Below are positions 10,134-30,123 of a DNA stretch of 32,845 bases, in pieces. The stretch covers positions 1 to 32,845 of the forward strand of contig JACPIG010000061.1 of the NCBI GenBank assembly GCA_016188205.1, read 5' to 3'. The notes under the pieces were generated by a model. The model worked only from the letters and a program-made list of their open reading frames with translations, searched no databases and was not told the DNA's origin. Origin of the DNA: Candidatus Woesearchaeota archaeon (GTDB lineage: Archaea; Nanobdellota; Nanobdellia; Woesearchaeales; UBA10216). Positions within the stretch are counted from its first letter, which is position 1; each line of letters opens with the position of its first letter. Made by a program: the position numbers and the translations under genes.

Positions 10134-10182
10134 TCTCATACGCATCAAGAATACGTATAAAAAGGTTTTTATATCCTCATAT

Positions 10183-11667: not shown

Positions 11668-11708
11668 AAGTCTCTGTAATTCATTTACCTATATAAATGT
11701 TGTTATTT

Positions 11709-11806
11709 TTGACAAGTTATTTATAAATAATGAAATTTATTTTGACAACATATATCGCTTAAAAGCAAATAGAATTGACAAGTTATTTATAACTGAAGTT
11801 TATTTC
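11709..11806. repeat. Two direct copies of a ~32-35 bp AT-rich unit, 66 bp apart
   Basis: Copy 1 is ttgacaagttatttataaataatgaaatttatttt (11709-11743). Copy 2 is ttgacaagttatttataactgaagtttatttc (11775-11806). The first 18 nt are identical, and a partial third copy ttttgacaac occurs near 11748. Confidence 0.8.
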
Positions 11807-11886
11807 TGTTAGCAATTTCAGAAAAGGCATTCTTGCTACTGCTTAGTAACGAAACATTTATAAACGGGAGATGCAAGCATGCCCAT

Positions 11887-13551: not shown

Positions 13552-14825
13552 ATCAAGGAAAAGGCATGAAGCCAAGAACCCTGGCAGAAGCGCTCGGAAT
13601 TAAAGGGACACCTGTGATGAGCAACGAACAGATGCAGGCGTATGCCTGGGAAAGAAAGCTGGCAGACCCCGGGACACAGGGAGTGCTCCTTGAGGAACAA
13701 GTCAGTGGGCTGAGGGGAATAGTTATCCACAACGCGAAAACAACAGAGGAAGTAAGACGCGTCCTCCGGGACGAGGCGAAACTTTCCGTTGTTGAATATG
13801 CCCCGCCAAAATCATCCGAACCGCATTTCTGGGTTCCGGCGACAGGATACATACACGTGGTTAATACAAGAGGAATAACAAGACTGCTGAGAGATGAAGC
13901 ATTAGCCAGAATACTTAGTTATCTTCTCCCCAATGAGGTTGAAATTGCCATAAGCAACTATCATGGCAGCAGGCGCGAAGCCAACGACAGGTTTGAGCAT
14001 TTTGCCTATGCGCTTGTTGATGATATCTTCATGCACCTTGACAAAGCAGCAGTAACCAAAAATGGCAGGATTAACCTTCTCCTTGGCCCTTATGTGTCAA
14101 TAGATGACGCGCTTAGCACAGATGGATGCGAGATTGCTCACAGTACAGACAGTGACTACCTTAACTACAGAATTGTTCTTGCGGGCACATCAGAAGGGAA
14201 GGAAGTAGTGGTTAATTTTGACTATATCTTCGCTGACCAGGCAAAGGACGTTCTGCACAAGCTGTACAAGGGGGTTGCTGCGGAATTCAGCAGGCAGGGC
14301 ATCAGCATAAACGTGCTGCATTACGGCAAGGTAGGCGTACTGGATCCGGCAACAAATGTCGGAGACATAATAATCCCCACAGGCGCTTTTGACGAGGAAA
14401 AGCTTCAATATGCGGTCAGGAGAGGAGAGCCCATACCGCAGCAATACGCTCTAAACAACCAAATCGCATCCAATCCGGATGTGAGAGCACTATTTTATCG
14501 CGCTGTCAGCGGCAGAATAAATTCAGGGGTTACGGTCAACACAAACTCCGTCCTTGAGCAGACAGCAGAAAGGCTCCGGATTGATTTAGGCGCAGGCGGA
14601 AACTGGCTTGAAATGGAATGGGCAGTAATAGCCAGCCTGTCAACAGGCTCACACAGCACATACCCCGGGACAGGGTCAATAAACCACTTCCTGGCAGGAG
14701 TCGGCTCAGACAACCCGCTAAGAGGGCAAACACTCGGAGAAACACATTACCCCCGCGAAAGGGAAGCAGAAGTTGCGAAAGCAATGATAAGGATAATACA
14801 GCATATGCCTGAGCTGGGGCTTTGA
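13548..14825 (+). CDS. PNP/UDP-fold nucleosidase or phosphorylase-like protein (AMP-nucleosidase-like C-terminal half) with an unknown N-terminal domain
   Basis: ATGA overlap with the upstream stop (13548-13551). The C-terminal half reads HYGKVGVLDPATNVGDIIIPTGAFDEE ... GVTVNTNSVLEQ ... NWLEMEWAVIASL ... FLAGVGSDNPLRGQ. This mirrors the GHCGGL..IGDYVL, TVVTTDDRNWE, IDMESATIAA and LLCVSDKPLHGE blocks of AMP nucleosidase, recalled from memory. Confidence 0.55.
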   Translation: MNQGKGMKPRTLAEALGIKGTPVMSNEQMQAYAWERKLADPGTQGVLLEEQVSGLRGIVIHNAKTTEEVRRVLRDEAKLSVVEYAPPKSSEPHFWVPATGYIHVVNTRGITRLLRDEALARILSYLLPNEVEIAISNYHGSRREANDRFEHFAYALVDDIFMHLDKAAVTKNGRINLLLGPYVSIDDALSTDGCEIAHSTDSDYLNYRIVLAGTSEGKEVVVNFDYIFADQAKDVLHKLYKGVAAEFSRQGISINVLHYGKVGVLDPATNVGDIIIPTGAFDEEKLQYAVRRGEPIPQQYALNNQIASNPDVRALFYRAVSGRINSGVTVNTNSVLEQTAERLRIDLGAGGNWLEMEWAVIASLSTGSHSTYPGTGSINHFLAGVGSDNPLRGQTLGETHYPREREAEVAKAMIRIIQHMPELGL

Positions 14826-14831
14826 GGAAAA

Positions 14832-15812
14832 ATGGCAAAAGTCACAGTAATCTTCAAGGAAAGCACGCACAAGATTTACAGCGCTTCAGACAGCGCAGGA
14901 TTACTGGCTTATATGCAAAAAGGAAGCGCACATGTGAAAGGGATGGAAGAAGCGCGTGACGAGCACGAAAGAACGCTTGAAGAAGTTATAAGGGTTATAG
15001 ACAGGCATGGAGTCGGCTGCAATGCGATATACAGGGGTGAACTCTCCGGAATGGATGAGGAAAGAAGGAGAGAGCTCATCCAAAATGCACAGCTTCTTAT
15101 TACTGTTGGAGGCGACGGCACATTCATGGAGGCATCCCACTATATCCCTGAAGGGTCAGCAACGCCCCTTCTTGGAGTTAATTCAGACCCTGCGAGGAGC
15201 ACGGCTTTCTACTCAATCGCAAACATGCAGACATTTGAAGGCATATTAGGGCAGGCACTTGAAGGGAAACTGACAAAACTTCTTCTTCCGAGGCTGAGCA
15301 TAGAGGTCAACGGAAAAAGGATTGCTGAGCTTGTAATAAACGACGTCAGGCTGAAAAACTCAGGAGATGACCTTTTCAGATACGACCTTTCCGTTGACGG
15401 CGCCGTAAAATCAGGGCTGCGCTCAGACGGAATACTGGCATGCACTCCTTCAGGATACACTGGATGGATGGTTGACTTTCCCGGAAGCATATACCTTCCT
15501 CTCGGCTCAAAAGACATGCAGTACTACTTAATGGGAAAGCCAGTGCCGCCAGAACTCGCAAAACAATCCATTGAAATCTCCTCACTGACAAGAGAGGGAA
15601 TAATGCATGTTGATGGTGTTCACGTGCAGTACGAATTCAGCATAGGTGACGTTATAAGGATAACCCCCGGAGAGCCGCTTACATTCCTCGGGGAACTTGA
15701 AGGCAAGAGGGCAGCATATGCTGCGAGAAAATTTGAAGAGCTGCTCACAGCGATACCCGTGTTTGAGCAAAGGGCGAGAGCAAACCTGGAACTGGTCAGA
15801 GGGAGGGCTTAG
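14832..15812 (+). CDS. nadK: NAD kinase
   Basis: The GGDG motif is LLITVGGDGTFM, the NDV motif is LVINDVRL, and SDGILACTPSGYTGW corresponds to DGxxxSTPTGSTAY. A GAGG site lies upstream of the ATG. Confidence 0.88.
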   Translation: MAKVTVIFKESTHKIYSASDSAGLLAYMQKGSAHVKGMEEARDEHERTLEEVIRVIDRHGVGCNAIYRGELSGMDEERRRELIQNAQLLITVGGDGTFMEASHYIPEGSATPLLGVNSDPARSTAFYSIANMQTFEGILGQALEGKLTKLLLPRLSIEVNGKRIAELVINDVRLKNSGDDLFRYDLSVDGAVKSGLRSDGILACTPSGYTGWMVDFPGSIYLPLGSKDMQYYLMGKPVPPELAKQSIEISSLTREGIMHVDGVHVQYEFSIGDVIRITPGEPLTFLGELEGKRAAYAARKFEELLTAIPVFEQRARANLELVRGRA

Positions 15813-15818
15813 CAGACT

Positions 15819-16661
15819 TTATGATAGCCTACTGTCCGTAATTGTGCGCAGCAAAATTTCCTTAAAGCCGGGGTTTACATCAGTTATTATTGACACATTT
15901 CCATACACTGCTTTTTCAGTTATTGCGCTGTCTGCGAAGTGATGCACAACAAGCGGGTCATAAAGGTATGCGCAGTCCTGCTCAGCTTTTCCCATCCAGG
16001 ACTGAGCAGCAGCATGAATGTAAGCAGAAGCTGAGGCTGGAACTCCTCCTGATTTTATCAGCCCAAAATCCTCTCTTGTCAGGGAGCTTTTCTTGCATAC
16101 TTCTGTCGTGACAATGGTTATGGGCGCTGGCGATGCAAAGACAATGTCAACAGCCTCAGGGTCAACCTTGAAGTTGTGCGCCCTGTAGTTGATGTAAAAC
16201 GCGCCAGGCGTTATAATAGCGTTGCCCATGGCGTATATGTGGCTGACAAGGGCAGGGAGGTCAGGGTACTTTTGGAAAGCCCTTGCAATGTTAGTCATCG
16301 GGCCTATTGACGCGATGCCTACATTATTCCTGCTCGCGTATATTGCTTCAGCGATTGCCTCAACACCATCCAGCCTTATGTCAAGGCTTTCAGCAGCATC
16401 CACAAAATCCGCGCCTTCATCCCCTTCCCAGTAAAGGTGCTTCTGCTTCAACGGCTTTGACTCGCCTGCAGCAACAGGAATATCTGCGCCCAGAAGCATA
16501 ACCAGCTTTTTCGCTATGCGCGCCCTGACGTAAGCGTCTCCGTGAACTGTTGTCACCAGCTTAATGTTCATCCCCAGTTTTACCGCGTACATTAATGCTA
16601 TCGCGTCATCAACATCAGTCCCTATGTCCGTATCTATGATTATGGCTTCGTCAATGCTCAT
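15819..16661 (-). CDS. Inosine/uridine-preferring-type nucleoside hydrolase (IUNH family)
   Basis: The N-terminal fingerprint is IIIDTDIGTDVDDAIALMYA (DxDxxxDD). The gene overlaps the upstream gene by 4 nt (16658-16661). Confidence 0.88.
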   Translation of the reverse strand: MSIDEAIIIDTDIGTDVDDAIALMYAVKLGMNIKLVTTVHGDAYVRARIAKKLVMLLGADIPVAAGESKPLKQKHLYWEGDEGADFVDAAESLDIRLDGVEAIAEAIYASRNNVGIASIGPMTNIARAFQKYPDLPALVSHIYAMGNAIITPGAFYINYRAHNFKVDPEAVDIVFASPAPITIVTTEVCKKSSLTREDFGLIKSGGVPASASAYIHAAAQSWMGKAEQDCAYLYDPLVVHHFADSAITEKAVYGNVSIITDVNPGFKEILLRTITDSRLS

Positions 16662-17578
16662 TTTCCATACCTCTCAGCCACAGCAGCAAAAAGGTTAAGC
16701 GCGCTGATAACTGAATCGCGCATCATGCATATGTCGTCGCCAAGCATAAAAGCCCTGTAGCCCATCCTGAGAAGATTATCAACATCGCCTATGTCCTGGC
16801 ATGACGGCTCAAGGCTTTCCGCGAGCGAAGGGAAAATCCTTGACGCAACAATGGCATTTTGCTCCTTTGCAACTATGAGCTCGCAGGCAGCAATAACATG
16901 ATGAGGCATCTTCAGCTCAGTGTAAAGGTCGCCCCTCGCAGCCATAAGCCTTGTTTTGCCTTCCGGCTTCCATAGAGTCTTGACATAATCCATTCCCTTC
17001 ACAGACTCAATCTTCTCAACAACATTGGCAGCAGAGTCAAGAGCCCTCAAGTCAGAAATGTCCTCTGGCTTCTCAACAAATGAAAGCATGTAATTATGCG
17101 CGCCAACCTTTACAGCAGCTTCAACATACCTTTTGTCAGTGTCAGTCATGTATCCCTCTATTGACAATGAAGGGTGCGGGATGTTTATTGACTCTCCCTC
17201 ACCGACAACCCTTTTCGGCCCGTCCTGCATTATGAGCCTGCTGCCGTCTGCAGCAAGAATCACAGCACTTTCCTGCCCGTCGTGGAAGTAAGCCCTCACA
17301 TTCGGCTCAACAGTTATCCTGTGGCTTATCCCGATTTCCGTAAATGGGGGGACAGCATACCCGACAACCCTTATCTGCCTGCATTTGAGGTCTATCCACA
17401 ACTCCTTTCCAAAAGTTCCAGCCTCGTGAAAAAGCCTTTTAAGCACGTCCTCAAGCGAGTCAGAGCCCTTAACAGGCATGACTGTGTTAAGCCTTATGCC
17501 TGAAACAACCTGATGGCTTAGCACGTCCCTCAGGTAAGGCGCGTACGGAGGCATTGTGACTATTGCGGTTGCTTCCAT
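16658..17578 (-). CDS. Pyruvate-kinase-like barrel protein (A and B domains only, no C-terminal regulatory domain)
   Basis: SGIRLNTVMP compares with ARLNFSHG, and WIDLKCRQIRV with DTKGPEIR. GESINIP compares with KGVNLP, MLSFVEKPEDI with ALSFVRxAxDV, and VVEKIES with IISKIEN. LMAARGDLYTEL compares with IMVARGDLGVEI. At 306 aa it is shorter than a canonical PK by about the size of the C-terminal domain (estimate from memory). Confidence 0.6.
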   Translation of the reverse strand: MEATAIVTMPPYAPYLRDVLSHQVVSGIRLNTVMPVKGSDSLEDVLKRLFHEAGTFGKELWIDLKCRQIRVVGYAVPPFTEIGISHRITVEPNVRAYFHDGQESAVILAADGSRLIMQDGPKRVVGEGESINIPHPSLSIEGYMTDTDKRYVEAAVKVGAHNYMLSFVEKPEDISDLRALDSAANVVEKIESVKGMDYVKTLWKPEGKTRLMAARGDLYTELKMPHHVIAACELIVAKEQNAIVASRIFPSLAESLEPSCQDIGDVDNLLRMGYRAFMLGDDICMMRDSVISALNLFAAVAERYGK

Positions 17579-17581
17579 TGC

Positions 17582-18652
17582 TCACCTTCCTGCCTTCAGC
17601 TCATAAATCCTGTCAGCTGCAGACACAAGCCTTTCCAAGCCGCTTACCTGCCTTATCCATGATTCAGGAAAGACCATTCCGTTTTTCGCCCCAGCCAGAG
17701 CGCCGTAAATCGCGCCAGTGGTATCTGTGTCGCCGCCGAAATTAACAACCTCAACCAGCCCCTCTACTGGATTGTCCCAGTACTTCTGCAGCATGAACAA
17801 AGCAAAAGGGTAAGAGCTGAATACGAGGCTGCTGCTGCCCAAATTCCTGTGCGCATCAGCAGCTTCTGCATCCATGCTGGCGGCAACCCATTCAACCCTT
17901 TCCGAGAGGCTGCCCGAGCCTGAACGAGCGTTGCTTCTGCCAAGCGGCATTTCGTAACGCCTGCACACACTAGTGAGAGAACTTACAAAATCATTTCTTG
18001 GAATATCCTGAAGCAGCCCGTATATGGCATGAGCCTGAACAACTCCGCTGGCAACAGAGCGCGGATCAAGGTGCGTGATTCTCCCTGTCAATCCCGCATA
18101 CTGCAGCCCCTTTTCGCACTCACCTGTTGCATCCATATACATCCCGACAGGCGACATCTTCATTGCAGGAGCATTTCCAGGAGCGCCTACAACACCTGAT
18201 TTTTCAGGCGGAAATCCTTCCATCAATCTCCTGAAGCCCCTGATTGTCGTATAGCCAAAGCCTCCTGTTGACCTTCCATCCGGAAGAAGCCTCTGCACAT
18301 ACTCTGCCAGCTGCTTTCCAGCAATATGCCCAAGGTCAAGACCTTTACATTCAGCAATTGCCTCAGCCAAAGCCAGAGTCAGAATCGTGTCGTCTGTGTA
18401 ATCTCCAGCTTTCATTCCTGCGTCTGCGGCAAAATACTTCAGCTTTCCGAACTCGTCATGCCTGACAACTTTGCCATTGCCATCCCTCAAAACAAACGGC
18501 TCAACCGGCTCAGTTATCCTTCCCACATGCTTTTCTATCTGCTCCTTCTTCCAGCCCTCAACAGGCTTTCCAAGGATGTCACCTATGGCACAGCCTACAA
18601 GCACAGCCCTGTACCTTTCTCTCATGTCCGGCATATTCGGCATATTCGGCAT
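17582..18652 (-). CDS. ADP-ribosylglycohydrolase (ARH/DraG family)
   Basis: The N-terminal motif is RYRAVLVGCAIGDILGKPVEG, followed by YTDDTILT and the C-terminal metal motif GGDTDTTGAIYGALAGA. First ATG is at 18652, with three more in-frame ATGs in a 9-nt tandem repeat (18625-18652). Confidence 0.9.
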   Translation of the reverse strand: MPNMPNMPDMRERYRAVLVGCAIGDILGKPVEGWKKEQIEKHVGRITEPVEPFVLRDGNGKVVRHDEFGKLKYFAADAGMKAGDYTDDTILTLALAEAIAECKGLDLGHIAGKQLAEYVQRLLPDGRSTGGFGYTTIRGFRRLMEGFPPEKSGVVGAPGNAPAMKMSPVGMYMDATGECEKGLQYAGLTGRITHLDPRSVASGVVQAHAIYGLLQDIPRNDFVSSLTSVCRRYEMPLGRSNARSGSGSLSERVEWVAASMDAEAADAHRNLGSSSLVFSSYPFALFMLQKYWDNPVEGLVEVVNFGGDTDTTGAIYGALAGAKNGMVFPESWIRQVSGLERLVSAADRIYELKAGR

Positions 18653-18843
18653 ATTCAATACCTCTGCATTCCATATGCAAATTTACAGCAGGCTAAACTA
18701 CAGAGGGCTAAGCCAGGATTTCCTCAAGGGGGCTTTCACCTGCCAAGCCCTCCTTGGGTTCCTGAGGCATAAGCTCCTCGTAGCTGCAAATTATTTTCCG
18801 GCTCATCCCACACCTCATTCCTTTCCCTGCACGCTTTCATCCC

Positions 18844-19839
18844 CTATGGCTTGTCCACCATCTCGTCAAGAGGCACAGACACGCCGCCTGAATCAGGCCT
18901 GTCAATAACAGACCTGTTTGAAGCTGCTGACAGGTCAGGGATGAACCTCAGCGAGTCGTAAACCGCTGAGCGCACAGCAGGGTCTGTCTGCCTTGAACCC
19001 ATGCTGTCCTTGAAGTCTCCGTATTGTCCCCAGTGCTTTGCTATTATTCCCATCGCTATGTCAACAACCCTGTCGCTGCCCGGAAGCTCAATTATGCGCT
19101 GCCTTCCAATGGCTGCTGCCCAATAGTCAACAACCTCCCTGTCTATTCCCGGATCATTTCCACTTTCATATGGCTTGTGCAGGAAGAAAACATTGAACCT
19201 CTGCATCAGCCCTTCCCATACAGCCTTTCCTTCAAGCGGCGACTGAAGCCTGTCGCCAATGTAGTGCTCCACCTGCCTTGGTTCAACTTTGCTGTAGAAC
19301 TTTTCATCCCCGCAAACCAGCAGGAAAGGCGACTTGGCGTTTGGCATCTCAACTTTTTTCAAGGCAAAATAGCCGAACAGCTCATAGCTCTCGGAGTACT
19401 GCCCGCCTCCTTTACCTTCAGGGCACAGCGCCTTTATGTGGTCCTCAAGCTCAACGCCCTTGCCAAAATTGTTGACCTGCAGCGGATAATTGTCGCAGTT
19501 TGCATCCCCAATTGCTGCAAACGATATCTCCACGTCAGGCCTGTACTGAGACAGGGTCTGGTAAAGCAATGGCAGCCTGTCAAAAATCTCAGACGGCCAG
19601 TCCTGCATAGAGCCTGTAACGTCTATTGCGAAAACTATCGGGTTTTCACTCGCTGTCGTTATAACCTTTCCGTTTGTGCCAACCAGCTTTGAGTCAGGGC
19701 TTGACCTTTTTGCGTAAGCCCTTCCTCCACGCGCACTCGCGGCAGACGCAAGCTTATCAAGGTAAGGCGCCCTCGCAGAGTCGTACTTGTATGCGTCCGG
19801 CTTTTTCCAGTTTGCAGTTCCTCCTCCCCAGCTGTACAT
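18844..19839 (-). CDS. von Willebrand factor A (vWA) domain protein
   Basis: Start trimmed to the ATG at 19839, which is preceded by GGAGGTAAACAAA. The MIDAS-like motif is IVFAIDVTGSM, followed by alternating beta-alpha pattern (SFAAIGD, FLLVCGDEKF, NVFFLHKP). Confidence 0.72.
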   Translation of the reverse strand: MYSWGGGTANWKKPDAYKYDSARAPYLDKLASAASARGGRAYAKRSSPDSKLVGTNGKVITTASENPIVFAIDVTGSMQDWPSEIFDRLPLLYQTLSQYRPDVEISFAAIGDANCDNYPLQVNNFGKGVELEDHIKALCPEGKGGGQYSESYELFGYFALKKVEMPNAKSPFLLVCGDEKFYSKVEPRQVEHYIGDRLQSPLEGKAVWEGLMQRFNVFFLHKPYESGNDPGIDREVVDYWAAAIGRQRIIELPGSDRVVDIAMGIIAKHWGQYGDFKDSMGSRQTDPAVRSAVYDSLRFIPDLSAASNRSVIDRPDSGGVSVPLDEMVDKP

Positions 19840-19906
19840 TTTGTTTACCTCCAGAGCTATCGCTAGCTCTAAGCATGTTCCTTCATTTTTGTCTCTCATT
19901 GCACGC

Positions 19907-20683
19907 TCAAACAGCGTGCCTTCTTTCAAAGACCTTCTCCCTTATGTCTGAAAGCCTTTGCAAAGGGTTGTCCTTATCCCAGTTAGGCCTATCCACAGGA
20001 TTGTAACGAAGCAGGCTGCTGCAAAACTCCGCAAGCTCATCAGGCACATCTGAAGGAAGCGACTTCTTTGCCACGTCACCGCCAAGAGCTGTAAGCATGA
20101 CCAGCCCTGCGCCGTAAAGGTCAGTTTCCGGAATAGGCGGCTTTCCGTCAAGCACCTCAGGAGCAACATATGCAGGTGTATATCCAACAACTTTTGAGCG
20201 GCTCGTCGGGTTAAGGACTGCAAGCCCCCAGTCAATCAGCTTTATGTCCCTTTTTTTCGGCTCAACAAGCACGTTCTGCGGCTTTATGTCTGAATGTATT
20301 ACACCGTTTGAATGCGCATAATACAATGCGCCAAGCAGGCGCTCAGTAATCCACGAAGCATCCTCAGGATGAATCCTTCCCCTTCCTGACTTAACAATCT
20401 CGTCAAGAGTCCTGCCTTCTATGTAACTTAGCACAATCATCGCGTTCCTGTCGTCAAGCCTTATGTAGTCCCTCACTGCCGGTATGGAGTGGTACTCGTA
20501 AAGCTCCCACATCACCTTCGCCTCTCTCCTTAGAAGCTCAACATCATCAGGTGTTGTGCGGATGTTCTGCTTCAGGCAAGCCAGCTCGTCAAGCATCACA
20601 TGCCTTGCAACATAAATCCTTGCAAAGCCGCCCTCGGCAAGCCTGCTTTCAATCCGATAATTCCCGATTGTTGGCATTTTCAT
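19907..20683 (-). CDS. Hanks-type Ser/Thr protein kinase (stand-alone catalytic domain)
   Basis: The Gly loop is LAEGGFARIY and the catalytic-loop region is ACLKQ ... VIHSDIKPQNVLV (HSD, so non-RD). DWG replaces DFG in KLIDWGLA, followed by YVAPEV and DLYGAGLVM. Confidence 0.9.
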   Translation of the reverse strand: MKMPTIGNYRIESRLAEGGFARIYVARHVMLDELACLKQNIRTTPDDVELLRREAKVMWELYEYHSIPAVRDYIRLDDRNAMIVLSYIEGRTLDEIVKSGRGRIHPEDASWITERLLGALYYAHSNGVIHSDIKPQNVLVEPKKRDIKLIDWGLAVLNPTSRSKVVGYTPAYVAPEVLDGKPPIPETDLYGAGLVMLTALGGDVAKKSLPSDVPDELAEFCSSLLRYNPVDRPNWDKDNPLQRLSDIREKVFERRHAV

Positions 20684-20694
20684 CACTCTTTTCC

Positions 20695-21651
20695 CTACTT
20701 TCCTGCTGTCGCTGCAGTGTAAAGCGCCAGCTCAATATGCGCAGGCTCCAAAAGGGCATACCCATTGGATTCTATTGCTGCAGCCACCCTTTTAGCCCAG
20801 CCCGGCCACTCTGTCTTTTCCATTCCACAAATAACCTGCCCAACAAGTTCCTGTGTATAGCCCCTTGACAAAAAGAAGAGCTCGTCCATCACCATTGATG
20901 CCTTGCCCAGCTCACCCCTTGGGAAGCCGTTGTCATGATTTGAGTCCAGCATCTGCACCAGCCTGCCTGTGGCGTGTTCAAAAGCGCCTGCAGGAATTAA
21001 GCCGGCATATCCAGCATCTCCTGATTCAGGAGGAAGCTGGCACAGACCCCTGTAACCCTCATAAAGCCCGCCTTCAAGAGGCTCCCTGTAAAACGAGCCT
21101 TCAGACCTTTCACCAGCCTCATTGAGCATGTCCTCCCACGTGGGCTGAAGCCGCCTGTCAGTCTGAACTGCTGAAAGCGAGCGCGCCAAATGCGCGGAAA
21201 TACTTGTCCCTGCAATATCCGCCTTCATCTTAGGGCTGTTAATCAAGCCGTATAAAGATTCAAAAAGAGCAGCGTCCTTTCCCAGATAGCCGCAAAACTG
21301 GACAAGGTTCTGCACATAAAGCCTTCTCAGGTAAAGCCCCTCATTGCCTTCACCAAGCACATTCAAGTTGATTTCATGCCCTGTGTCTGGCTCTGTGTCA
21401 GGCAGCGTTTCCAGAAGCCTTATCGCCATCTCCCTGCACTTAACAGTGTACGCTCCTTTATTGTCGTCTGCGCTTTCAATCAGCCTGAGCATCCTTACAA
21501 CCTGCATATATTCGCCCCCACTCGCATACCCGCCTTGGTCATAGCCCTGCCCTATTGCGCGCGCCAGTTCGCCAATGTCGCCTTCGTCCAGTGCCTTGAG
21601 CAGCCTTTCGCTCCCCTCAAATTCGTGCATTGCAATTCTGCCGATGTCCAT
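20695..21651 (-). CDS. Hypothetical protein (about 318 aa) with no recognisable motif; first gene of the vWA/kinase module
   Basis: ATG at 21651 is preceded by GGAGGTG and lies 2 nt after the TGA of the Nudix-NMNAT gene. The stop is 11 nt before the kinase ATG. I see no PP2C, FHA or P-loop signatures. Confidence 0.6.
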   Translation of the reverse strand: MDIGRIAMHEFEGSERLLKALDEGDIGELARAIGQGYDQGGYASGGEYMQVVRMLRLIESADDNKGAYTVKCREMAIRLLETLPDTEPDTGHEINLNVLGEGNEGLYLRRLYVQNLVQFCGYLGKDAALFESLYGLINSPKMKADIAGTSISAHLARSLSAVQTDRRLQPTWEDMLNEAGERSEGSFYREPLEGGLYEGYRGLCQLPPESGDAGYAGLIPAGAFEHATGRLVQMLDSNHDNGFPRGELGKASMVMDELFFLSRGYTQELVGQVICGMEKTEWPGWAKRVAAAIESNGYALLEPAHIELALYTAATAGK

Positions 21652-21653
21652 TT

Positions 21654-22811
21654 TCACACCTCCGCAGGATGAAGCCTCTCGCTTTCAACACATTCAGGGC
21701 TCCTGTAATCCTTTCCTGAAAGCTGCGCGATTGTCTCCAGCCCGAACTCGCGCCTGAACCTGTCAGCAAGCCCATGGCTTTCCATGTAATCAGCAACAGC
21801 AGCAGGCACAAGCGCTTTCCAGTTGCCAGCCTTAGCCATCTCCATCCTCACAGTTGTCGCGTTCAGTTTTATCCATTTCTCAGGCGGGATAAGCTCGTCA
21901 GCAGGATTAATTATCACATATGTGCCCTCAAGCAATTCCTTCACATAGCCGTTCGCAGTCACAAAAGCGTCAAGGGAGCCGTACTGCAAAGCAACCTCCC
22001 CAGCCCACTTCCTTCCATCCCTGAATTCAGGAATGTGCCCGTAATCAGGAATCTCAACAAAGCTGTAGTTTGAGAACCTCGGGGAAAGGTATGCGCCAAT
22101 CATCTCCCTTGTTTCTTCTGCAGTAAAAGGGTTCCTTGCATTGTACTTGTTGCAGCTGCCTATTCCTATAGTGACGTGCTCTGCCTGTTCACACACAGCC
22201 TCAAGCATACCTGCTGCGCCATTATGCAAAGGTTTGAACCTGCCTATGACTCCAACCCTTCCCAGCTTTTTCACATGAGAATCTTCGGCTGAATCTTTGG
22301 CAGCGCCCATTACTCCGGATGCGGAATATCCCTTTTCCAGCAGATACTTTTCCAGAGTTTTTGCATGGTCAAACGCAAGCCCGCCTTTTGCAATGAGCGC
22401 CTGTATTTCTGGAATCGTATAAAGCCTTGCAGAAGCCGCATCATCACCAGCCCATATTTTGCCTGCGCCTTTTGCAATGTATGTCACGCTGATTATGTGC
22501 GCCCTCGGGTCGCGTGCAGGGTCTGAATGGACGCAGAAAGGCATTTCAGGCTCATTTACAATAATCTCAAGCCCGGTTTCCTCTTTCGCCTCCTTCGCAG
22601 CGTTCTCCTCCAATGTAAGCCCTGACTCGGCAAACCCTCCGGGCAGAGCAATCCCATAAGGATAGTTTTTCCTTGTAATAAGGACAATCCCATCATCAGA
22701 GCCGTCTGTGTACTCTATAATGATGTCAGTTGTCAGCAGGGGATTAGTGTCTCTCCTGTGGATGGTGTTCTGTGCCTTTTGTGCCTGTTGTGCCGTCTGT
22801 GTTGTGCTCAT
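21654..22811 (-). CDS. nadM: Bifunctional-type fusion: N-terminal Nudix hydrolase plus C-terminal archaeal-type NMN/NaMN adenylyltransferase
   Basis: The Nudix box is GGFAESGLTLEENAAKEAKEETGLEI. The NMNAT part reads VIGRFKPLHNGAAGMLE...VTIGIGSCNKYNARNPFTAEETREMI...NATTVRMEMAKAGNWKALVP, closely paralleling the M. jannaschii-type NMNAT as I recall it. ATGA overlap with the nadE stop (22808-22811). Confidence 0.85.
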   Translation of the reverse strand: MSTTQTAQQAQKAQNTIHRRDTNPLLTTDIIIEYTDGSDDGIVLITRKNYPYGIALPGGFAESGLTLEENAAKEAKEETGLEIIVNEPEMPFCVHSDPARDPRAHIISVTYIAKGAGKIWAGDDAASARLYTIPEIQALIAKGGLAFDHAKTLEKYLLEKGYSASGVMGAAKDSAEDSHVKKLGRVGVIGRFKPLHNGAAGMLEAVCEQAEHVTIGIGSCNKYNARNPFTAEETREMIGAYLSPRFSNYSFVEIPDYGHIPEFRDGRKWAGEVALQYGSLDAFVTANGYVKELLEGTYVIINPADELIPPEKWIKLNATTVRMEMAKAGNWKALVPAAVADYMESHGLADRFRREFGLETIAQLSGKDYRSPECVESERLHPAEV

Positions 22812-24865
22812 GCTGCCATCACCCCTGCAACAGCCACAGCATGAGCACCTGCAACTGCACCAGTTCCATCTTTTTGCGCACCATCCGCCCAGTCTTTCGG
22901 CACATACCTGACCATAGCAAGCACTTCTGCCTTCAGCCTTTCATAAGCAGGCATTCTTCCATTAGGCAGAATGCTTTCCCTTATGTCGTAGCCATAAGCA
23001 GACTTGCTGACGACGATTATCGGCGGGCTTTGAACGCGCTTGAACACGTTTCCTTCTGCCTTTGCAATAAACCACTCAAGGTCGCTGACAAACTCTTTTG
23101 GGTCATCCATGCCCCAGCGCCTTATGAGCTCAGTTGATATTCCGAGATTCTCCTCAAGAGCGCCCTCAATGTACCAGCGCATTATCTGCTCAGGCGATTT
23201 CCTCATGTAGTCAGTCATGGCATTGACAAACGCGCAGTGGTAGCCGAACTTTATAGGACTCACCTGACCTTCCTTCAGCTCAGGACCAGACTTTATCTGG
23301 TCATCCCTGAACCTGTACAGCCTGTCAGGAATAAGCTCTTCCGGAAGCACTTCCCTTCCGAAAATCTCTCTGTTAAGGTAACGCGCAAGCTCAAAAACCT
23401 CTGCCTTTGTCAAATCGCCAATTGGCGATAATGCCCCGCCAACATCCCCATAGAGCGTTGCGTAGCCAAGCATTATCTCATCCTTGTTGCCGTTGTTCGT
23501 GAACAAGGCGCCATACATGCCTGCAAGGTTTGAAAGAATTGCAGTTCCCCGGATTTTTGCAGCAACGTTCTCAACGTAGCTGCTCTCGGCAAGCTTCTTC
23601 CCGCTGCCGTCAAGGTCAAAGCGGTCAATAAGAGCGATGTTTGCATTTGTGAGCTCTTCTATCGGGATTTCCACGTAGCCGATACCAAGGCTTTCAGCAA
23701 TTCCTGCAGCAGCCTGCATTGTCCTTGCAGAATTAACATGTGTAGGCATATTGATGGCAAGCACCTTCTCAGGGCCAACAGCCACTGTCAGAAGAGCTGC
23801 AACAACTGCGCTGTCTATGCCTCCGCTCAGGCCTATCACGTATCTTGGCTGCTCCTGCAAGCCCATGAAATCCTTCATGTGCCTTATGCCTTCTACGATT
23901 GCCTCGTACTTCTGCGCAATCATCGGCTTCTCAAGCCTCACAACAGGGCTCCTAAAAAATTCTTCCTCATCAACAATCATGAGCTCCTGCTCATAAGCGG
24001 CTTTGCTGAGCCTGACAGGCAAGCCATCACTGTTGTAAACGGTTGAGCCGCCATCAAACGTTATGAAGTTCTTGCCAGTATTCTGAACCCCTGTGCAGTT
24101 GACATAAAGGAACGGAACAAAGCTGTTTCCTGACTCTCCCTTCAGAAACCTTATCCTCCTGTCCCTTGCAGCGTTCTTGCCGTAAGTCCAGGGAGAAGCG
24201 GAAATGTTGACAACGAGCTGCGCGCCGTTTCCTATCAGAATCCTTGTGGCGTTCTGCGCCTCGCCGTTCCTCCTGTAATCAGCACACCACAAATCCTCGC
24301 ACACCTCAAAGCCAACAGGAACCTTTTTTCCTTTTACGTCTATTACGAAAGGCTGCACGAGGTCTTCAAGCGCTGCGCCAAAATCCTTTGCAACGTCCTC
24401 TGTGGAAAAGAAATACCTCTCATCGTCAAAGAACCTGTAGTTCGGAAGCAAGGTCTTTGGCTGCACGCCTTCAGGCAGCAGATTTGTTTCCTTCAGGCGC
24501 TGTGCAGGCATGCCATTCTGGAAAACGTAAACAGCATTGTACTTCCTGCTCCTCCCATCCTTGTTCGGATGAGGCTTTTCGTCGCCAACCCTTTCATTGA
24601 TTTCCCGGTCAACAAAGATATTGCCATAAGCAACGGCAATACCATCGCTTGCCTTTCTCAGAGCCTCATTGAACTCCATCAGGCCTTCGCAGTAGTCGTC
24701 GCTGAGCCACTTGTCACCCAGAAGGTAGCCGCCAACACTCATCTCAGGGAAAGCAATAAGGTCAACGCCCTCAAGCTTTGCCCTTTCAATCATGCCAAGC
24801 ATTGCCTCAAGGTTTTTCCCTGGAGCTCCGGGCTTCACTTCCATCTGTGCAAGCGCAACCTTCAT
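22808..24865 (-). CDS. nadE: Glutamine-dependent NAD+ synthetase (CN-hydrolase glutaminase domain plus PP-loop synthetase domain)
   Basis: The nitrilase-type N-terminus is MKVALAQMEVKPG...LIAFPEMSVGGY...FEVCEDLW. The PP-loop is VIGLSGGIDSAVVAAL. ATG at 24865 is preceded by AAGGTGG. Confidence 0.93.
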   Translation of the reverse strand: MKVALAQMEVKPGAPGKNLEAMLGMIERAKLEGVDLIAFPEMSVGGYLLGDKWLSDDYCEGLMEFNEALRKASDGIAVAYGNIFVDREINERVGDEKPHPNKDGRSRKYNAVYVFQNGMPAQRLKETNLLPEGVQPKTLLPNYRFFDDERYFFSTEDVAKDFGAALEDLVQPFVIDVKGKKVPVGFEVCEDLWCADYRRNGEAQNATRILIGNGAQLVVNISASPWTYGKNAARDRRIRFLKGESGNSFVPFLYVNCTGVQNTGKNFITFDGGSTVYNSDGLPVRLSKAAYEQELMIVDEEEFFRSPVVRLEKPMIAQKYEAIVEGIRHMKDFMGLQEQPRYVIGLSGGIDSAVVAALLTVAVGPEKVLAINMPTHVNSARTMQAAAGIAESLGIGYVEIPIEELTNANIALIDRFDLDGSGKKLAESSYVENVAAKIRGTAILSNLAGMYGALFTNNGNKDEIMLGYATLYGDVGGALSPIGDLTKAEVFELARYLNREIFGREVLPEELIPDRLYRFRDDQIKSGPELKEGQVSPIKFGYHCAFVNAMTDYMRKSPEQIMRWYIEGALEENLGISTELIRRWGMDDPKEFVSDLEWFIAKAEGNVFKRVQSPPIIVVSKSAYGYDIRESILPNGRMPAYERLKAEVLAMVRYVPKDWADGAQKDGTGAVAGAHAVAVAGVMAA

Positions 24866-24893
24866 TTTGTCCACCTTCAGCCTTTAGCAGGCT

Positions 24894-25559
24894 TTAGCGC
24901 AGGTACTGCTCCAGCGCTGTTGAATCAATCATCCTGACGCCTCTTGCCACCCACGCATCTGTCGGGTCAGGGATTCCGGGCAGCCCCTTGATGGCATCCC
25001 TGACAACATAAACCTCAATCGGCCTGCCACCAATTTTCCTGTCAAGCAGCCCACCGACTGCGAAGTCAACGCAAACATTAGTTGCGACACCGTAAACAAA
25101 CACCCTCTCAGGCTTCAGAATCTCAAGCACCCTTTCAACGTGAGGCGAGCCGTGCTCCCTGTTGAAAACATCAACGTGGTCCTTGGTCAGCACAATATTG
25201 CGGTGCGACAGCACCATTTTTTCATCCAGCGTTCTGTCACGCCAGTCAAGAACATAAGCATCCCTTGGCTTTGTTGCAGGCACAAACTCTGCTCCAGATG
25301 TTCCGTACATGCAGTGATCAGGAAATGTTTTTACAAAATCAGGATTATCAGAAAGTTCCCCTGAGCCTTTCTGGTGAGAATCTGCCTGGTTTATTACAGG
25401 GACATCATAATCCTCTGCTGTTTTTGTAACCCTTTCAAGCGCAGGTTCAATCTCCTCTGCTCCAGGCACGTACAGCCTGCCGTCCTTCCGCATAAAGTCG
25501 CCAGCTGTATCCACGTTCCAAAACAATGTCCCTGCCAGCTTTTCTTCCAGTCCAGCCAT
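24894..25559 (-). CDS. pncA: Nicotinamidase / pyrazinamidase (isochorismatase family)
   Basis: LFWNVDTAGDFM is the Asp motif and VFVYGVATNVCVDFAVGGL carries the catalytic Cys. ATG at 25559 is preceded by GGTGAGGTGG. Confidence 0.87.
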   Translation of the reverse strand: MAGLEEKLAGTLFWNVDTAGDFMRKDGRLYVPGAEEIEPALERVTKTAEDYDVPVINQADSHQKGSGELSDNPDFVKTFPDHCMYGTSGAEFVPATKPRDAYVLDWRDRTLDEKMVLSHRNIVLTKDHVDVFNREHGSPHVERVLEILKPERVFVYGVATNVCVDFAVGGLLDRKIGGRPIEVYVVRDAIKGLPGIPDPTDAWVARGVRMIDSTALEQYLR

Positions 25560-25577
25560 TTTTACCACCTCACCAGT

Positions 25578-25760: not shown

Positions 25761-25790
25761 GTAATTTTTACACTTACTAAGCCATTAAAA
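25761..25790 (-). promoter_or_regulatory. Promoter/operator box copy A (internal promoter overlapping the last pncB codons)
   Basis: The minus strand reads TTTTAAtggcttAGTAAGTGTAAAAATTAC. The same TATA-like element and spacing to the AGTGTAAAAA..AC motif are seen in copies B and C. Confidence 0.5.
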
Positions 25791-27216
25791 CAGGCTCTGC
25801 ACATGCGTGCATTGCATACTTTTCCTTAAGCACTTGAACAAGCCCCTGAAGCCCTTCTGACAGCTCAACCCTGTAGCCGTCTGCAGGAGCCCTCACAGCC
25901 CTGATATCATCAGGAAGCATTCCAACGCAGGCAAGCGCGTAGCTTCTTGTTTCTTTGAGAGTCTTTCTTTCAGCAACCCTTCTTCCATCCCTCACAACCT
26001 GCTCAAGAAGCGGAACTCCTTCAACATGCTCGCCTTCAAGCGCTATTACGTCATGCAGGCATCTTCCTTCACCATCCACAACCCTGTAAACCTGCTTTTT
26101 CCCAGGCAAAGTCTGCTTGCCCTCTGAAAGCTTTATTTTAGCCCCGTCTTCGTCCTCAACAAGCTTGTAAACCCCTGATATTGCCGCAACAGGCTTTGCA
26201 GTAATCATCTCTGTGCCAACACCATAAGCATCAATCCTCGCCCCCCTCCTTCGGAGCTCCTCTATCTTGTACTCATTGAGATCGTTGCTCGCAACAATCC
26301 TTACATATCCCATGCCTTCATCGTCAAACATCTGCCTGACTTCTATAGACAGGCCTGCAAGGTCGCCTGAGTCAAGCCTTACAGCATACAGCCTTTTTCC
26401 CTCTGCCTCAAGCTCTTTTGCAACCGTGACTGCGTTCCTTGCGCCCTGAATAGTGTCGTAAGTGTCAATCAGCAGCGTTGACTTGTCAGGGAAAGTCCTC
26501 GCATAAGCCCTGAAAGCGTCAATCTCTTCCTGGAAGCTCATCACAAAGCTGTGCGCATGAGTTCCTGCAACCGGTATTCCGTATTCCATCCCTGCCTTCA
26601 CGTTGCTTGTTGCTACAGCCCCTCCAATGTATGCCGCCCTTGCACCTTCCATTGCAGCATCCTCGCCCTGCGCCCTGCGCAAGCCGAAATCCACAATAGC
26701 GGCGCCATTCGCGGCATTAACAACCCTGCTTGCCTTTGTTGCAATCATGGTCTGGAAGTTTATTATGTTCAGCAACGCTGTTTCAAGGAACTGAACCTCA
26801 GCCCTTTTCCCGGTAACCCTCAATACAGGCTCGTCTGGAAAGAAAGGCGCTCCTTCCCTTAGTGCATATATGTCACCTGTGAACCTCATATCTTTCAGAA
26901 ACTCAAGGAACGCTTCGCTGAAAGTCCCCTGCTGCCTCAGGTAGCTTATGTCTTCTGGCGTGAATTCTATACCTGTGGCATAGTCAATTGCATCCTCTAT
27001 TCCGTTCGCTATGTAGTATCCCCAATTATCAGGCAGATTCCTTATGAACAGCTCAAATGTTGCAGTGTCGTTCTTTCCATTCTCAAAGTATGCGGCAGCC
27101 ATGGTAAGCTGGTAGAGGTCTGTCAGCATGGTCTTGCCTTGCATGCTTTGAATGCCATGCATGCCCTGCTCATCCTGCGCCAGTCTTTCCAAATCAGCCA
27201 CCATACCAATCACCAT
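25777..27216 (-). CDS. pncB: Nicotinate phosphoribosyltransferase
   Basis: MLTDLYQLTMAAAYF, IVDFGLRRAQG and PVAGTHAHSFVMSF are NAPRTase-family hallmarks. Start trimmed from 27324 to the ATG at 27216, because 27217-27345 is a promoter block duplicated upstream of 29148. Confidence 0.9.
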   Translation of the reverse strand: MVIGMVADLERLAQDEQGMHGIQSMQGKTMLTDLYQLTMAAAYFENGKNDTATFELFIRNLPDNWGYYIANGIEDAIDYATGIEFTPEDISYLRQQGTFSEAFLEFLKDMRFTGDIYALREGAPFFPDEPVLRVTGKRAEVQFLETALLNIINFQTMIATKASRVVNAANGAAIVDFGLRRAQGEDAAMEGARAAYIGGAVATSNVKAGMEYGIPVAGTHAHSFVMSFQEEIDAFRAYARTFPDKSTLLIDTYDTIQGARNAVTVAKELEAEGKRLYAVRLDSGDLAGLSIEVRQMFDDEGMGYVRIVASNDLNEYKIEELRRRGARIDAYGVGTEMITAKPVAAISGVYKLVEDEDGAKIKLSEGKQTLPGKKQVYRVVDGEGRCLHDVIALEGEHVEGVPLLEQVVRDGRRVAERKTLKETRSYALACVGMLPDDIRAVRAPADGYRVELSEGLQGLVQVLKEKYAMHACAEPVLMA

Positions 27217-27222
27217 ATAGTT

Positions 27223-27345
27223 ATTGTGTTTTTTACACTTACTTTGAGCCTTAAAAACGCTCAACGCCACAATTAGTGTATAGTATACACTAACTACTAT
27301 ATAAATGTTTTGGAAATGTGGCATATATGGTATATACTGAAAGAA
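27223..27345 (-). promoter_or_regulatory. Conserved intergenic module 1: tandem TATA boxes each followed by a TAGTGTA-type operator
   Basis: attgtgttttttacact (27223-27239) is 17/17 identical to 29177-29193. ttaaaaa at 27251-27257 is TATA-like on the minus strand. A perfect 19-bp palindrome tagtgtata-g-tatacacta lies at 27274-27292. A second TATA tatataaa is at 27298-27305 and ggtatatact at 27329-27338. Confidence 0.6.
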
Positions 27346-29176: not shown

Positions 29177-29345
29177 ATTGTGTTTTTTACACTAAGTTTT
29201 TGATTTAAAAATTACTTTTCTTTCAAATAAAACGAAGTGCCTTTTTGTCATTTTTTAACCGCTGTTGCCATAGTTATTGTATGATATACACTATTACTAT
29301 AAAAATATTTCGCCAATTCACTATATAGGATATATACTCTGAGAA
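29177..29345 (-). promoter_or_regulatory. Conserved intergenic module 2 (paralog of 27223-27345, with an insertion of about 40 bp)
   Basis: attgtgttttttacact is at 29177-29193 and the TATA-like ttaaaaa at 29205-29211. A partial palindrome tattgtatgatatacacta lies at 29275-29293. tataaaaa is at 29298-29305 and ggatatatact at 29328-29338. Order and spacing match module 1. Confidence 0.6.
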
Positions 29346-30100: not shown

Positions 30101-30123
30101 AATACTAATTGGCAATTAGTATT
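30101..30123. promoter_or_regulatory. Perfect 23-bp palindrome AATACTAATTG-G-CAATTAGTATT
   Basis: Arms 30101-30111 and 30113-30123 are exact reverse complements. A third ATTAGTAT half-site occurs at about 30146-30153. Confidence 0.6.

Follow-up and report, generated by a model that had tools for sequence, protein, structure and literature searches.

A kinase, vWA and pyruvate-kinase-like gene cassette in the NAD salvage operon of DPANN archaea, with relatives in bacteria and large phages

Here we present an analysis of a three-gene cassette carried on a 32,845-nt chromosome piece of a Candidatus Woesearchaeota archaeon, a member of the DPANN archaea (GenBank assembly GCA_016188205.1, contig JACPIG010000061.1; this whole stretch is referred to below as the window). 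The cassette encodes a Hanks-type Ser/Thr kinase, a von Willebrand factor type A (vWA) protein and a truncated homologue of pyruvate kinase, designated PK-like. Comparison of related loci showed that the three genes form a conserved cassette and are an integral part of the DPANN NAD salvage operon. Across cellular genomes, the invariant core consists of the genes for vWA, PK-like and a protein resembling nicotinamide mononucleotide adenylyltransferase (NMNAT). Taken together, the observations are best explained by a cassette that works within NAD salvage, with PK-like as its output, the vWA protein as partner, the kinase gating the vWA protein through its C-terminal tail, and the regulator NrtR controlling the set; we put the probability of this explanation as a whole at about 0.5.

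A first-pass annotation of the window had read the kinase and vWA genes, together with a 318-aa protein that it could not recognise, as one signalling module hard-wired into NAD biosynthesis. Its open reading frame (ORF) coordinates are all right, and the junctions it described (an ATGA overlap, a 2-nt gap with GGAGGTG and an 11-nt gap) are all as it read them. The membership of the module had to be revised: the 318-aa protein occurs in two genomes only, in a slot that is otherwise variable, and the recurrent third gene is PK-like at 16658-17578, beyond the coordinates that had been considered.

Conservation of the cassette in archaea and bacteria

A total of 305 species-level genomes contained a member of the vWA family, and the analysis covered 80 of these loci; counts are given as loci with the gene over loci in which it could be assessed. 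In 43/43 archaeal and 22/22 bacterial loci (65/65 together), the gene directly upstream of vWA is NMNAT-like, and a PK-like gene stands downstream in 43/43 archaeal and 20/26 bacterial loci (63/69). Between the NMNAT-like and vWA genes, a kinase gene is present in 41/43 archaeal loci, which are from DPANN, and in 0/22 bacterial loci. The bacterial carriers belong to the Planctomycetota, Myxococcota, Blastocatellia, Anaerolineae and Clostridia, and a NadE-like gene follows the core in 11/30 of their loci; among the carriers is the culturable Chondromyces apiculatus DSM 436 (L068), with NMNAT-vWA-PK-like-NadE. Since bacteria carry the NMNAT-like, vWA and PK-like genes without the kinase, the latter is an add-on, probably a regulator, and not the heart of the system.

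The DPANN vWA loci lie within clusters of NrtR, NAPRT (nicotinate phosphoribosyltransferase), PncA (nicotinamidase), NadE (NAD synthetase) and Nudix genes, and the DPANN salvage operon comprises NAPRT, PncA, NadE, Nudix, NMNAT-like, kinase, vWA and PK-like genes. Optional members are an ADP-ribosylglycohydrolase (ARH), which is near the cassette in several loci, a nucleoside hydrolase and a NAD-kinase-like gene. The first-pass annotation had regarded the kinase/vWA pair as wired into the NAD genes, and had named a linkage seen nowhere else as the outcome that would speak for a one-off insertion; across the 80 loci, with the NMNAT-like gene upstream in every assessable archaeal and bacterial case, that outcome fails decisively.

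In the window, the NAD- and ADP-ribose-related genes form a run on the minus strand from 30041 down to 15819, which contains the kinase gene (19907-20683, 258 aa from its ATG, or to 20686, 259 aa), the vWA gene (18844-19839, 331 aa) and the PK-like gene (16658-17578, 306 aa). Here an ARH gene (17582-18658, minus strand; Pfam ADP_ribosyl_GH, 2.1e-55) lies between the vWA and PK-like genes. Spacings from PncA to vWA are 19, -4, 2, 11 and 67 nt: the NadE stop and the start of the Nudix-NMNAT fusion gene overlap as ATGA, 2 nt separate the Nudix-NMNAT TGA from the ATG of the 318-aa ORF, which is immediately preceded by GGAGGTG, the TAG of that ORF is followed after 11 nt by the kinase ATG, and the vWA start lies 67 nt past the kinase stop. 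These spacings of -4 to +67 nt fit a single transcript.

Several loci carry additional genes within the cassette. A family of about 290-300 aa, without a Pfam match, is encoded between the vWA and PK-like genes in eight loci (L032, L036, L038, L042, L043, L047, L060 and L065) and between the kinase and vWA genes in L034, making nine loci in all. One or two further families without a Pfam match, of 115-135 aa, occur in 5-6 DPANN loci (L009, L010, L013, L018, L020 and L023), and these inserted families may be additional accessory components. In one bacterial subclade, represented by three Myxococcota loci (L071, L076 and L078), the place of PK-like after the vWA gene is taken by an FAD-dependent aromatic-ring hydroxylase (PF01494), followed by genes for large proteins without a Pfam match. 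No further conserved neighbour family, PP2C included, was found among the 80 loci, and a Pfam scan of the 20 window proteins likewise found no PP2C.

The vWA protein and its C-terminal tail

The vWA protein has no match in Pfam, NCBIfam or PADLOC (E<=0.01) or in a sequence search of the PDB; it does match PHROGs family phrog_2971, which carries no functional name, at 1.9e-24. Its assignment comes from structure prediction. An AF2 model built from an alignment of 29 homologues reached a predicted local distance difference test score (pLDDT) of 88.4 and a predicted template modelling score (pTM) of 0.87, and the top 50 Foldseek matches in the PDB, all at probability 1.0, were VWA domains such as those of integrin beta-I, NorD, vWF A1/A3, SpaC and RGLG1. 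The vWA call of the first-pass annotation is thereby borne out in the absence of any sequence-family match, and the model indicates that the 331-aa protein is a true vWA protein with a MIDAS, or metal-ion-dependent adhesion site, belonging to a separate family for which the libraries hold no model.

The MIDAS sequence DVTGS is encoded at 19609-19623, and D73-V-T75-G-S77 is invariant. E150 and E153 lie within an ESYEL motif, and G177-D178-E179 is invariant after the strand 172-177 (beta-4). Judged by these residues the MIDAS motif is complete, and a metal site is predicted. A Gly-rich EGxGGG loop adjoins the MIDAS, a helical bundle (H255-297) occupies the C-terminal region, and the protein closes with a disordered tail ending in S321-V-P-L324 (18868-18879). 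The 545 homologues found come almost exclusively from metagenome-assembled genomes of Woesearchaeota and Nanoarchaeota, and the family is strongly conserved, with a mean column identity of 60% and a dN/dS of 0.13.

The C terminus varies with genetic context. Where the vWA gene is linked to a kinase, the tail is basic, Ser/Thr-rich and predicted at low confidence, and ends in [ST]-x-x-L (e.g. KTKSL, RTVPL). The tail is absent in Planctomycetota, and in Myxococcota, Blastocatellia, Anaerolineae and Clostridia it is replaced by a CxxC...CxxC zinc ribbon. In tests that ignore phylogeny, [ST]xxL was found within the final 14 residues in 49/53 kinase-linked against 6/27 kinase-less proteins (Fisher p 2e-10), and a stricter form of the motif in 35/53 against 0/27 (Fisher p 1e-9). 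Conversely, the zinc ribbon is present in 0/53 kinase-linked and 16/27 kinase-less proteins. The DPANN locus L030 has neither the kinase nor the tail motif. These patterns indicate that the tail tracks the presence of the kinase, and the only substrate-related signal that we could detect for the kinase points to the vWA tail and not to NadE or NMNAT.

When 1.84 billion cluster representatives (50% identity) were searched with a profile, the family widened to 1717 clusters at E<=1e-3, of which 408 reached E<=1e-30; most are stand-alone proteins of 300-350 aa. Longer members carry C-terminal additions: a U-box in at least six (P0155, P0199, P0226, P0245, P0162 and P0213), a Nudix domain in P0223, from a marine-eukaryote transcript, and a RanBP-type zinc finger in P0181. 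One U-box member (L111) lies on a eukaryotic contig. As the appendage varies among tail, zinc ribbon, U-box, Nudix domain and zinc finger, the C terminus is an exchangeable addition to a conserved vWA core. Fusion to a Nudix domain in a eukaryotic relative independently supports a link of the family to nucleoside-diphosphate compounds. The eukaryotic members begin with MGGGYY or MGGSDY.

The PK-like protein

Pfam recognises the pyruvate-kinase barrel in the PK-like protein (2.3e-12). At 306 aa, as against about 470 for pyruvate kinase, it is limited to the A-domain barrel and a short insert resembling the B domain, and the C domain is missing. The motifs RLN (R29), DLKxRQxR (63-70), KIE (189-191), ARGDL (214-218) and ASR (245-247) can be identified, the second and the last reading DxKxxxxR and A(S)R across the family, and R29, K189, E191, D217 and S246 are invariant in 19 members. 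A profile of those 19 members matched only genuine pyruvate kinases in the PDB (best 9e-18), and PADLOC gave no match to the protein. Since it falls far below the NCBIfam pyruvate-kinase cut-offs (e.g. 59.6 bits against 432) and has only 306 residues, PK-like is best classed, by score and length, as a paralogue of pyruvate kinase rather than an orthologue.

Set beside pyruvate kinase itself (E. coli PykF, PDB 1pky; 4yng), the A-domain barrel can be aligned, and PK-like has counterparts of the Arg that binds phosphate, of the catalytic Lys and the metal-binding Glu (both in KIE) and of the metal-binding Asp (ARGDL); the position of the proton donor is also kept, with Ser in place of Thr. It differs in its length of about 300 aa, in the reduction of the B domain to a short insert, in the loss of the allosteric C domain and in always being accompanied by a vWA partner. 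That PK-like might serve as the organism's ordinary pyruvate kinase was considered and is unlikely: the same short form occurs in the same cassette in phages and in large-genome Myxococcota and Planctomycetota.

The Hanks-type kinase

The kinase consists of a catalytic domain only (Pfam Pkinase, 6.8e-35). As the first-pass annotation had noted, it is a non-RD kinase with HSD and DWG, the motifs being HSDIKPQN at 20273-20296 and DWG at 20225-20233. In an alignment of 51 orthologues, K38, E54, H130, D132, K134, N137, D151 and APE174-176 are each kept in 48-51, apart from A174, which is kept in 43; the G-loop, D188 and R232 are kept in at least 46, and the DFG position reads D[FYW]G. By its residues, the window kinase is predicted to be catalytically intact. 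The same set (G-loop, K38, E54, HxDxKPxN, D[FYW]G, APE and R232) is kept in both DPANN and large-phage kinases.

Relatives in phages

Scanning IMG/VR with the PK-like profile gave 14 contigs of 46-485 kb, and in 14/14 the kinase, vWA and PK-like genes occur in that order. Most contigs have them side by side; in L114 and L116 an insert separates the kinase gene from vWA. In the 485-kb uncultured phage LR745208.1 the three genes are consecutive, and the kinase is 42% identical to that of the window. The two phage kinases scanned with Pfam (L086 and L087) carry an N-terminal DnaJ domain, and those of the remaining trio contigs, at about 325-350 aa, are comparable in size. ARH is encoded within about 6-8 kb of the trio in 9/14 contigs, and a Nudix gene is found in 2. 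With the window proteins as queries, neither an NMNAT-like nor a NAPRT-like gene was detected next to the phage trio, and the subset of phage neighbours scanned with Pfam contained no NAD-synthesis domain.

A more distant set of vWA relatives (25-34% identity) is found in about 200 Bixzunavirus mycobacteriophages, where gp258 follows the "kinase" gp257 with an overlapping junction. In Bixzunavirus and other phages alike, the distant vWA genes come directly after a kinase-like gene whose product is degenerate at the catalytic Asp, the Lys and DFG, and is pseudokinase-like. In 17/26 viral and phage loci examined, an adenylosuccinate-synthetase/PurZ-like gene closely follows the vWA gene. Judged by gene content, this neighbourhood is a second conserved setting of the vWA family, putatively linked to purine metabolism.

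Individual phage loci have further neighbours. In L113 (8924-13531), an EF-G gene (693 aa) directly follows the trio and two R2K-clade ATP-grasp genes are nearby; in L121 (8926-11010), a 694-aa ORF takes the place of EF-G, which it resembles in size and position alone. L087 has PyrF ahead of the trio, and its kinase and vWA genes are separated by a class-II-aldolase-like gene. Examples of the distant vWA relatives are those of Mycobacterium phage LinStu (L085; NC_023714.1, 149023-152739) and the viral loci L089-L110.

Proposed regulation by NrtR

The run from NAPRT to vWA is preceded by a perfect 21-bp palindrome, TTAGTGTATAGTATACACTAA, at 27273-27293 with a GT-N7-AC core, and a weaker copy lies at 29275-29293. 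A 21-bp palindrome with this core is the described signature of NrtR (PMC2330246), and the sequence at 27273-27293 is a candidate NrtR operator. In the 1.29 Mb of sequence fetched, the only occurrences of TAGTGTA-N5-TACACTA are one in the window and those at 13 other DPANN loci. All are intergenic and stand upstream of NAPRT, PncA, NadE or, in two loci, a NAD-kinase-like gene. The NAPRT ORF as listed extends to 27324 (515 aa) and runs through the AT-rich promoter region that contains the palindrome; the true start is likely at 27216, where an ATG lies downstream of the operator.

Of 50 DPANN loci, 34 carry an NrtR gene, and in the window it lies at 29367-30041 on the minus strand, encoding a Nudix effector domain and a winged helix (Pfam NrtR_WHD 4.1e-25, NUDIX 1.5e-20). 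The NrtR gene, the conserved operator and the short spacings fit a single transcription unit, presumptively ADP-ribose-responsive, that would include the kinase and vWA genes.

A second perfect palindrome, of 23 bp (AATACTAATTGGCAATTAGTATT), lies at 30101-30123, about 60 nt upstream of the nrtR start. No further copies were found in the window with up to three mismatches allowed, and it may be an autoregulatory or other operator.

Proposed mechanism and alternatives

In the explanation that we favour, PK-like would be the catalytic output, most likely by phosphoryl transfer linked to phosphoenolpyruvate (PEP) or a nucleoside triphosphate (NTP), which would serve the ATP-consuming adenylyltransferase (NMNAT) and synthetase (NadE) steps. 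PK-like could regenerate NTP in this way, or phosphorylate an intermediate that contains pyridine or ribosyl. The vWA protein would be an obligatory, MIDAS-dependent partner, regulator or sensor of PK-like, its MIDAS and Gly-rich loop binding either an acidic residue of a partner enzyme or a ligand that carries phosphate, ADP-ribose or NAD for example. Where present, the kinase would switch the vWA protein by phosphorylating the [ST]xxL tail, in a manner resembling the action of ArnC/ArnD on ArnB. ADP-ribose, a product of NAD consumption, would release NrtR and so de-repress the whole set.

A number of observations weigh against this explanation. The NMNAT-like domain of the window has GRFKPLHNGA (about 22210-22245), with HNGA in place of the NMNAT signature HxGH; most DPANN orthologues examined have HxG[G/A/S], and the kinase-less bacterial ones have mostly HxGH, in an alignment against a provisional M. 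jannaschii reference sequence. Loss of the second His would bring the activity of the DPANN NMNAT-like proteins into question. PK-like, having neither a full B-domain lid nor a C domain, may act on substrates other than PEP and ADP. The phage cassettes stand not beside NMNAT genes but near ARH, Nudix, EF-G, PyrF and others, so that their link to NAD is only indirect, and the adenylosuccinate-synthetase-like neighbours of the distant relatives suggest that the role of the vWA family may be broader than NAD. The eukaryotic U-box fusions suggest protein recognition rather than a metabolite-linked role. Among the neighbours, no phosphatase and no FHA phospho-reader was found. Furthermore, the tail statistics set archaea and phages, as the kinase-linked group, against bacteria, as the kinase-less one.

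The first-pass annotation had envisaged a TerY-P-like triad of vWA protein, kinase and 318-aa protein that phosphorylates NadE or NMNAT, or senses the failure of NAD reconstitution. The kinase and vWA genes are indeed real and adjacent, within the NAD operons of 41/43 DPANN loci, the kinase residues are intact, and the junctions are tight. However, the supposed third member is an orphan of two genomes whose slot is taken by NadA or other genes elsewhere, bacteria possess the system as NMNAT-vWA-PK-like without the kinase, which rules the latter out as its core, and the sole substrate-related signal is the vWA tail. The TerY-P analogy also fails on PP2C, which is encoded neither in the window cluster, whose proteins were scanned, nor among the conserved neighbours, and we consider this triad quite improbable. 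Chance adjacency, or a recent one-off insertion of signalling genes, does describe the 318-aa ORF; for the cassette it is refuted by a kinase-vWA-PK-like order that is held in 41-43/43 DPANN loci at only 45-69% identity and is found again in phages, and we give it practically no credence.

Two other accounts give the conserved genes different roles. One is that of a conflict or counter-defence system, in which the vWA MIDAS reads ADP-ribose or ADP-ribosylated targets and, with the kinase and PK-like, responds when NAD is depleted or ADP-ribosylation occurs; in large phages it would be directed against NADase or ADP-ribosyltransferase defences of the host, and in DPANN and some bacteria it would be retained for NAD homeostasis. 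The trio on all 14 large-phage contigs, with ARH near in 9 and Nudix in 2, would suit such a role, as would the J-domains of phage kinases, the Gly-rich loop adjoining the MIDAS, the occurrence of ARH, Nudix and ADP-ribose-responsive NrtR around the DPANN cassette, and the eukaryotic Nudix, U-box and RanBP zinc-finger fusions, which resemble reader-plus-effector proteins. Against it, neither the vWA protein nor PK-like matches PADLOC, the vWA family is strongly conserved, unlike fast-evolving conflict proteins, and the cassette is present in a single copy per genome in a housekeeping-like salvage operon; moreover, we know of no vWA domain that reads ADP-ribose. This account is unlikely, in our judgement. 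The other is purely metabolic, with vWA and PK-like as the two subunits of a salvage enzyme feeding NMNAT, for example a PEP- or ATP-dependent nicotinamide or nicotinate riboside kinase, and with the Hanks kinase as a lineage-specific modulator. It would accommodate the occurrence of NMNAT-vWA-PK-like(-NadE) alone in the five bacterial groups, the retention of the pyruvate-kinase catalytic residues, the nucleoside hydrolase and PNP-like genes of DPANN clusters, the lack of a recognisable riboside kinase in the window cluster, and the ability of NadA to stand inside the cassette. It is made doubtful by the phage cassettes without an adjacent NMNAT gene, by U-box and zinc-ribbon appendages that are atypical of an enzyme subunit, and by the replacement of PK-like with a flavin aromatic hydroxylase in some Myxococcota; to our knowledge, no vWA-fold protein serves as a catalytic subunit. 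We consider this account, too, quite improbable.

A more far-reaching proposal, which we offer as speculative and rather improbable, is that the vWA protein is a MIDAS-based reader of ADP-ribose, ADP-ribosylated or NAD-derived ligands in an ancient module that senses and responds to NAD consumption. That module would combine it with a minimal pyruvate kinase and, in archaea and phages, with a Hanks kinase gating it via the C-terminal phospho-tail; it would be shared by DPANN, several bacterial phyla and jumbo phages, in the last for counter-defence, and in eukaryotes it would have been rewired to U-box ubiquitin ligase or Nudix outputs.

Comparison with known systems

The TerY-P triad, reportedly described by Anantharaman, Iyer and Aravind in 2012, is said to combine the vWA protein TerY with a PP2C phosphatase and a Ser/Thr kinase in a predicted phosphorylation switch. 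An adjacent vWA and Hanks kinase pair in a prokaryotic operon is common to both (41/43 DPANN loci here). The window system differs in having no PP2C, in having a pyruvate-kinase homologue as its third conserved gene, in that many members are kinase-less, and in its NAD salvage context in place of Ter/tellurite stress genes. The missing Pfam VWA match also argues against close kinship with the TerY clade.

The nearest working analogue is ArnB/ArnC of Sulfolobus acidocaldarius, in which the Hanks kinases ArnC and ArnD phosphorylate the C-terminal part of the vWA protein ArnB and so switch its partner binding, alongside the FHA protein ArnA (PMC6509490). Both systems have a stand-alone archaeal vWA protein whose MIDAS is intact and whose C-terminal region is helical, and the helical bundle of the window protein (H255-297) with its kinase-tracking Ser/Thr tail would be the counterpart of the latter, phosphorylation here being predicted. 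They part in that the window system has no FHA reader or phosphatase nearby, and in that ArnB has an extra beta-sandwich and governs archaellum expression, whereas the window family is tied to NMNAT-like and PK-like and has no detectable sequence relation to ArnB (no Pfam VWA match).

Salvage operons run by NrtR (Rodionov et al. 2008, PMC2330246) share with the window NrtR itself, the operator, pncA, pncB, nadE, nadM-Nudix and the ADP-ribose logic. The regulons described there are bacterial and have no kinase, vWA or PK-like gene, whereas the window operon is archaeal, and its NrtR binding and ADP-ribose response are predicted.

Phages also carry NAD-related gene sets of their own. NARP1 consists of Adps and Namat and NARP2 of Nampt and NMNAT (bioRxiv 2024.02.11.579819), and NARP3 of PnuC and NadR (PMC13464706). 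These sets revolve around the metabolism of NAD and ADP-ribose, and the trio, too, is borne by large phages, near ARH and Nudix genes. It differs in that the cassette includes none of the NARP enzymes, and no PRPS-like Adps, Nampt/Namat, PnuC or NadR is adjacent. NARP3 was considered as a match for the cassette and set aside as unrelated, being PnuC plus NadR. The window genes are those of the Preiss-Handler set (NAPRT, PncA, NadE and NMNAT) and not of NARP1, 2 or 3.

Novelty and significance

Kinase-vWA phospho-switches and NrtR-run NAD operons are each already known. For their combination, for the cassette and for the vWA family, which across archaea, bacteria and jumbo phages is obligately paired with a truncated pyruvate kinase and an NMNAT-like protein, we found no description in the searchable literature, in which subscription journals are thinly covered, so that this absence is not proof. 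A 2022 survey of viral NAD/ADP-ribose systems contains no pyruvate-kinase, NMNAT or vWA cassette under those words. The first-pass annotation had likewise been aware of no earlier account of a signalling module embedded in NAD biosynthesis, and our literature search agrees. The parts of the cassette other than the kinase have no curated family model.

A three-gene cassette at the NMNAT step is present in hundreds of genomes of archaea and bacteria and in large phages, with relatives of its vWA protein in eukaryotes. NAD depletion and reconstitution is a central theme of phage-host conflict, and NAD salvage is a lifeline of the genome-reduced DPANN symbionts. If vWA/PK-like were a new NAD or ADP-ribose enzyme or sensor, it would supply a component missing from NAD homeostasis in archaea and bacteria, give the vWA fold a metabolic role and make the control of cofactor metabolism by a Ser/Thr kinase testable in Archaea, and it could be a candidate for a fourth type of phage countermeasure related to NAD or ADP-ribose. 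If it were only an ATP-regenerating helper and scaffold, it would still account for a widespread neighbourhood that is now annotated as "hypothetical".

The 318-aa orphan

The gene between the Nudix-NMNAT and kinase genes (HYV82_03615; 20695-21651, or to 21657 with 320 aa; minus strand) has two matches in 5.8 billion proteins, namely itself and a protein of a sister genome (L127) that is 83-89% identical. Gene order in that genome is identical to the window. Compared with the sister genome, the orphan has a dN/dS of 0.28 (0.13-0.29 for its neighbours), which marks it as a real gene. It has no family match in Pfam, NCBIfam, PADLOC or PHROGs and no sequence match in the PDB; the AF2 model, made from a two-sequence alignment, has a pLDDT of 35 and a pTM of 0.22 and is all-helical. 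The slot between NMNAT and kinase genes holds NadA in L005, L007 and L026 and a nucleoside-deoxyribosyltransferase-like gene in L027, and in all other loci it is empty or holds another gene, the orphan being absent. The possibility that the orphan is a diverged NadA was rejected (BLASTP E=0.25, and an all-helical prediction). On this distribution, the orphan is a lineage-specific passenger in a variable slot, outside the conserved cassette.

Other genes and features of the locus

The remaining members of the minus-strand run begin, below NrtR, with genes for an SPFH protein (28279-29148) and a NAD-kinase-like protein (27346-28275). They are followed by NAPRT (25777-27216; Pfam NAPRTase_N, 1.2e-36, from ORF residue 66), by PncA (24894-25568; isochorismatase fold; Pfam Isochorismatase, 6.1e-12), which is kept in DPANN clusters, and by the glutamine-dependent NadE (22808-24874; Pfam NAD_synthase, 9.5e-37, with CN_hydrolase; NCBIfam PRK13981, 1.9e-81). 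The Nudix-NMNAT fusion, with a NadM-like adenylyltransferase, occupies 21654-22811 (Pfam NUDIX, 2.7e-11, and CTP_transf_like; NCBIfam NMNAT subfamily, 3.3e-21, below cut-off). At the far end of the run, an inosine-uridine-type nucleoside hydrolase gene (15819-16661; Pfam IU_nuc_hydro, 2.3e-44) has a start that overlaps the PK-like stop by 4 nt, and on the plus strand a PNP-like gene and a second NAD-kinase-like gene occupy 13548-15812.

Smaller features lie in the spacers and at gene ends. The 67-nt spacer between kinase and vWA genes contains an 18-nt inverted repeat, AGAGCTATCGCTAGCTCT, at 19853-19870 (9-nt arms, one mismatch), which may be an RNA hairpin or a protein-binding site. In the spacer between vWA and ARH genes, a 32-aa ORF, MSRKIICSYEELMPQEPKEGLAGESPLEEILA, lies at 18708-18806 on the minus strand with a GAGGTG site; in the sister genome (L127, 6749-7003) both of its halves are kept as peptide, and the ORF is split by an insert of about 95 nt with two hairpin-forming inverted repeats, like a miniature inverted-repeat transposable element. 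At the 5' end of the ARH gene (18625-18658), ATGCCGAAT occurs three times in tandem, so that several in-frame ATG starts are possible (MPNMPNMPDM...). Finally, an AAA_14/DUF4143 ATPase is encoded at 10183-11667 within a low-GC island at 10000-12000 (0.35 against about 0.50); the island lies next to the gene for seryl-tRNA synthetase and is probably inserted foreign DNA.

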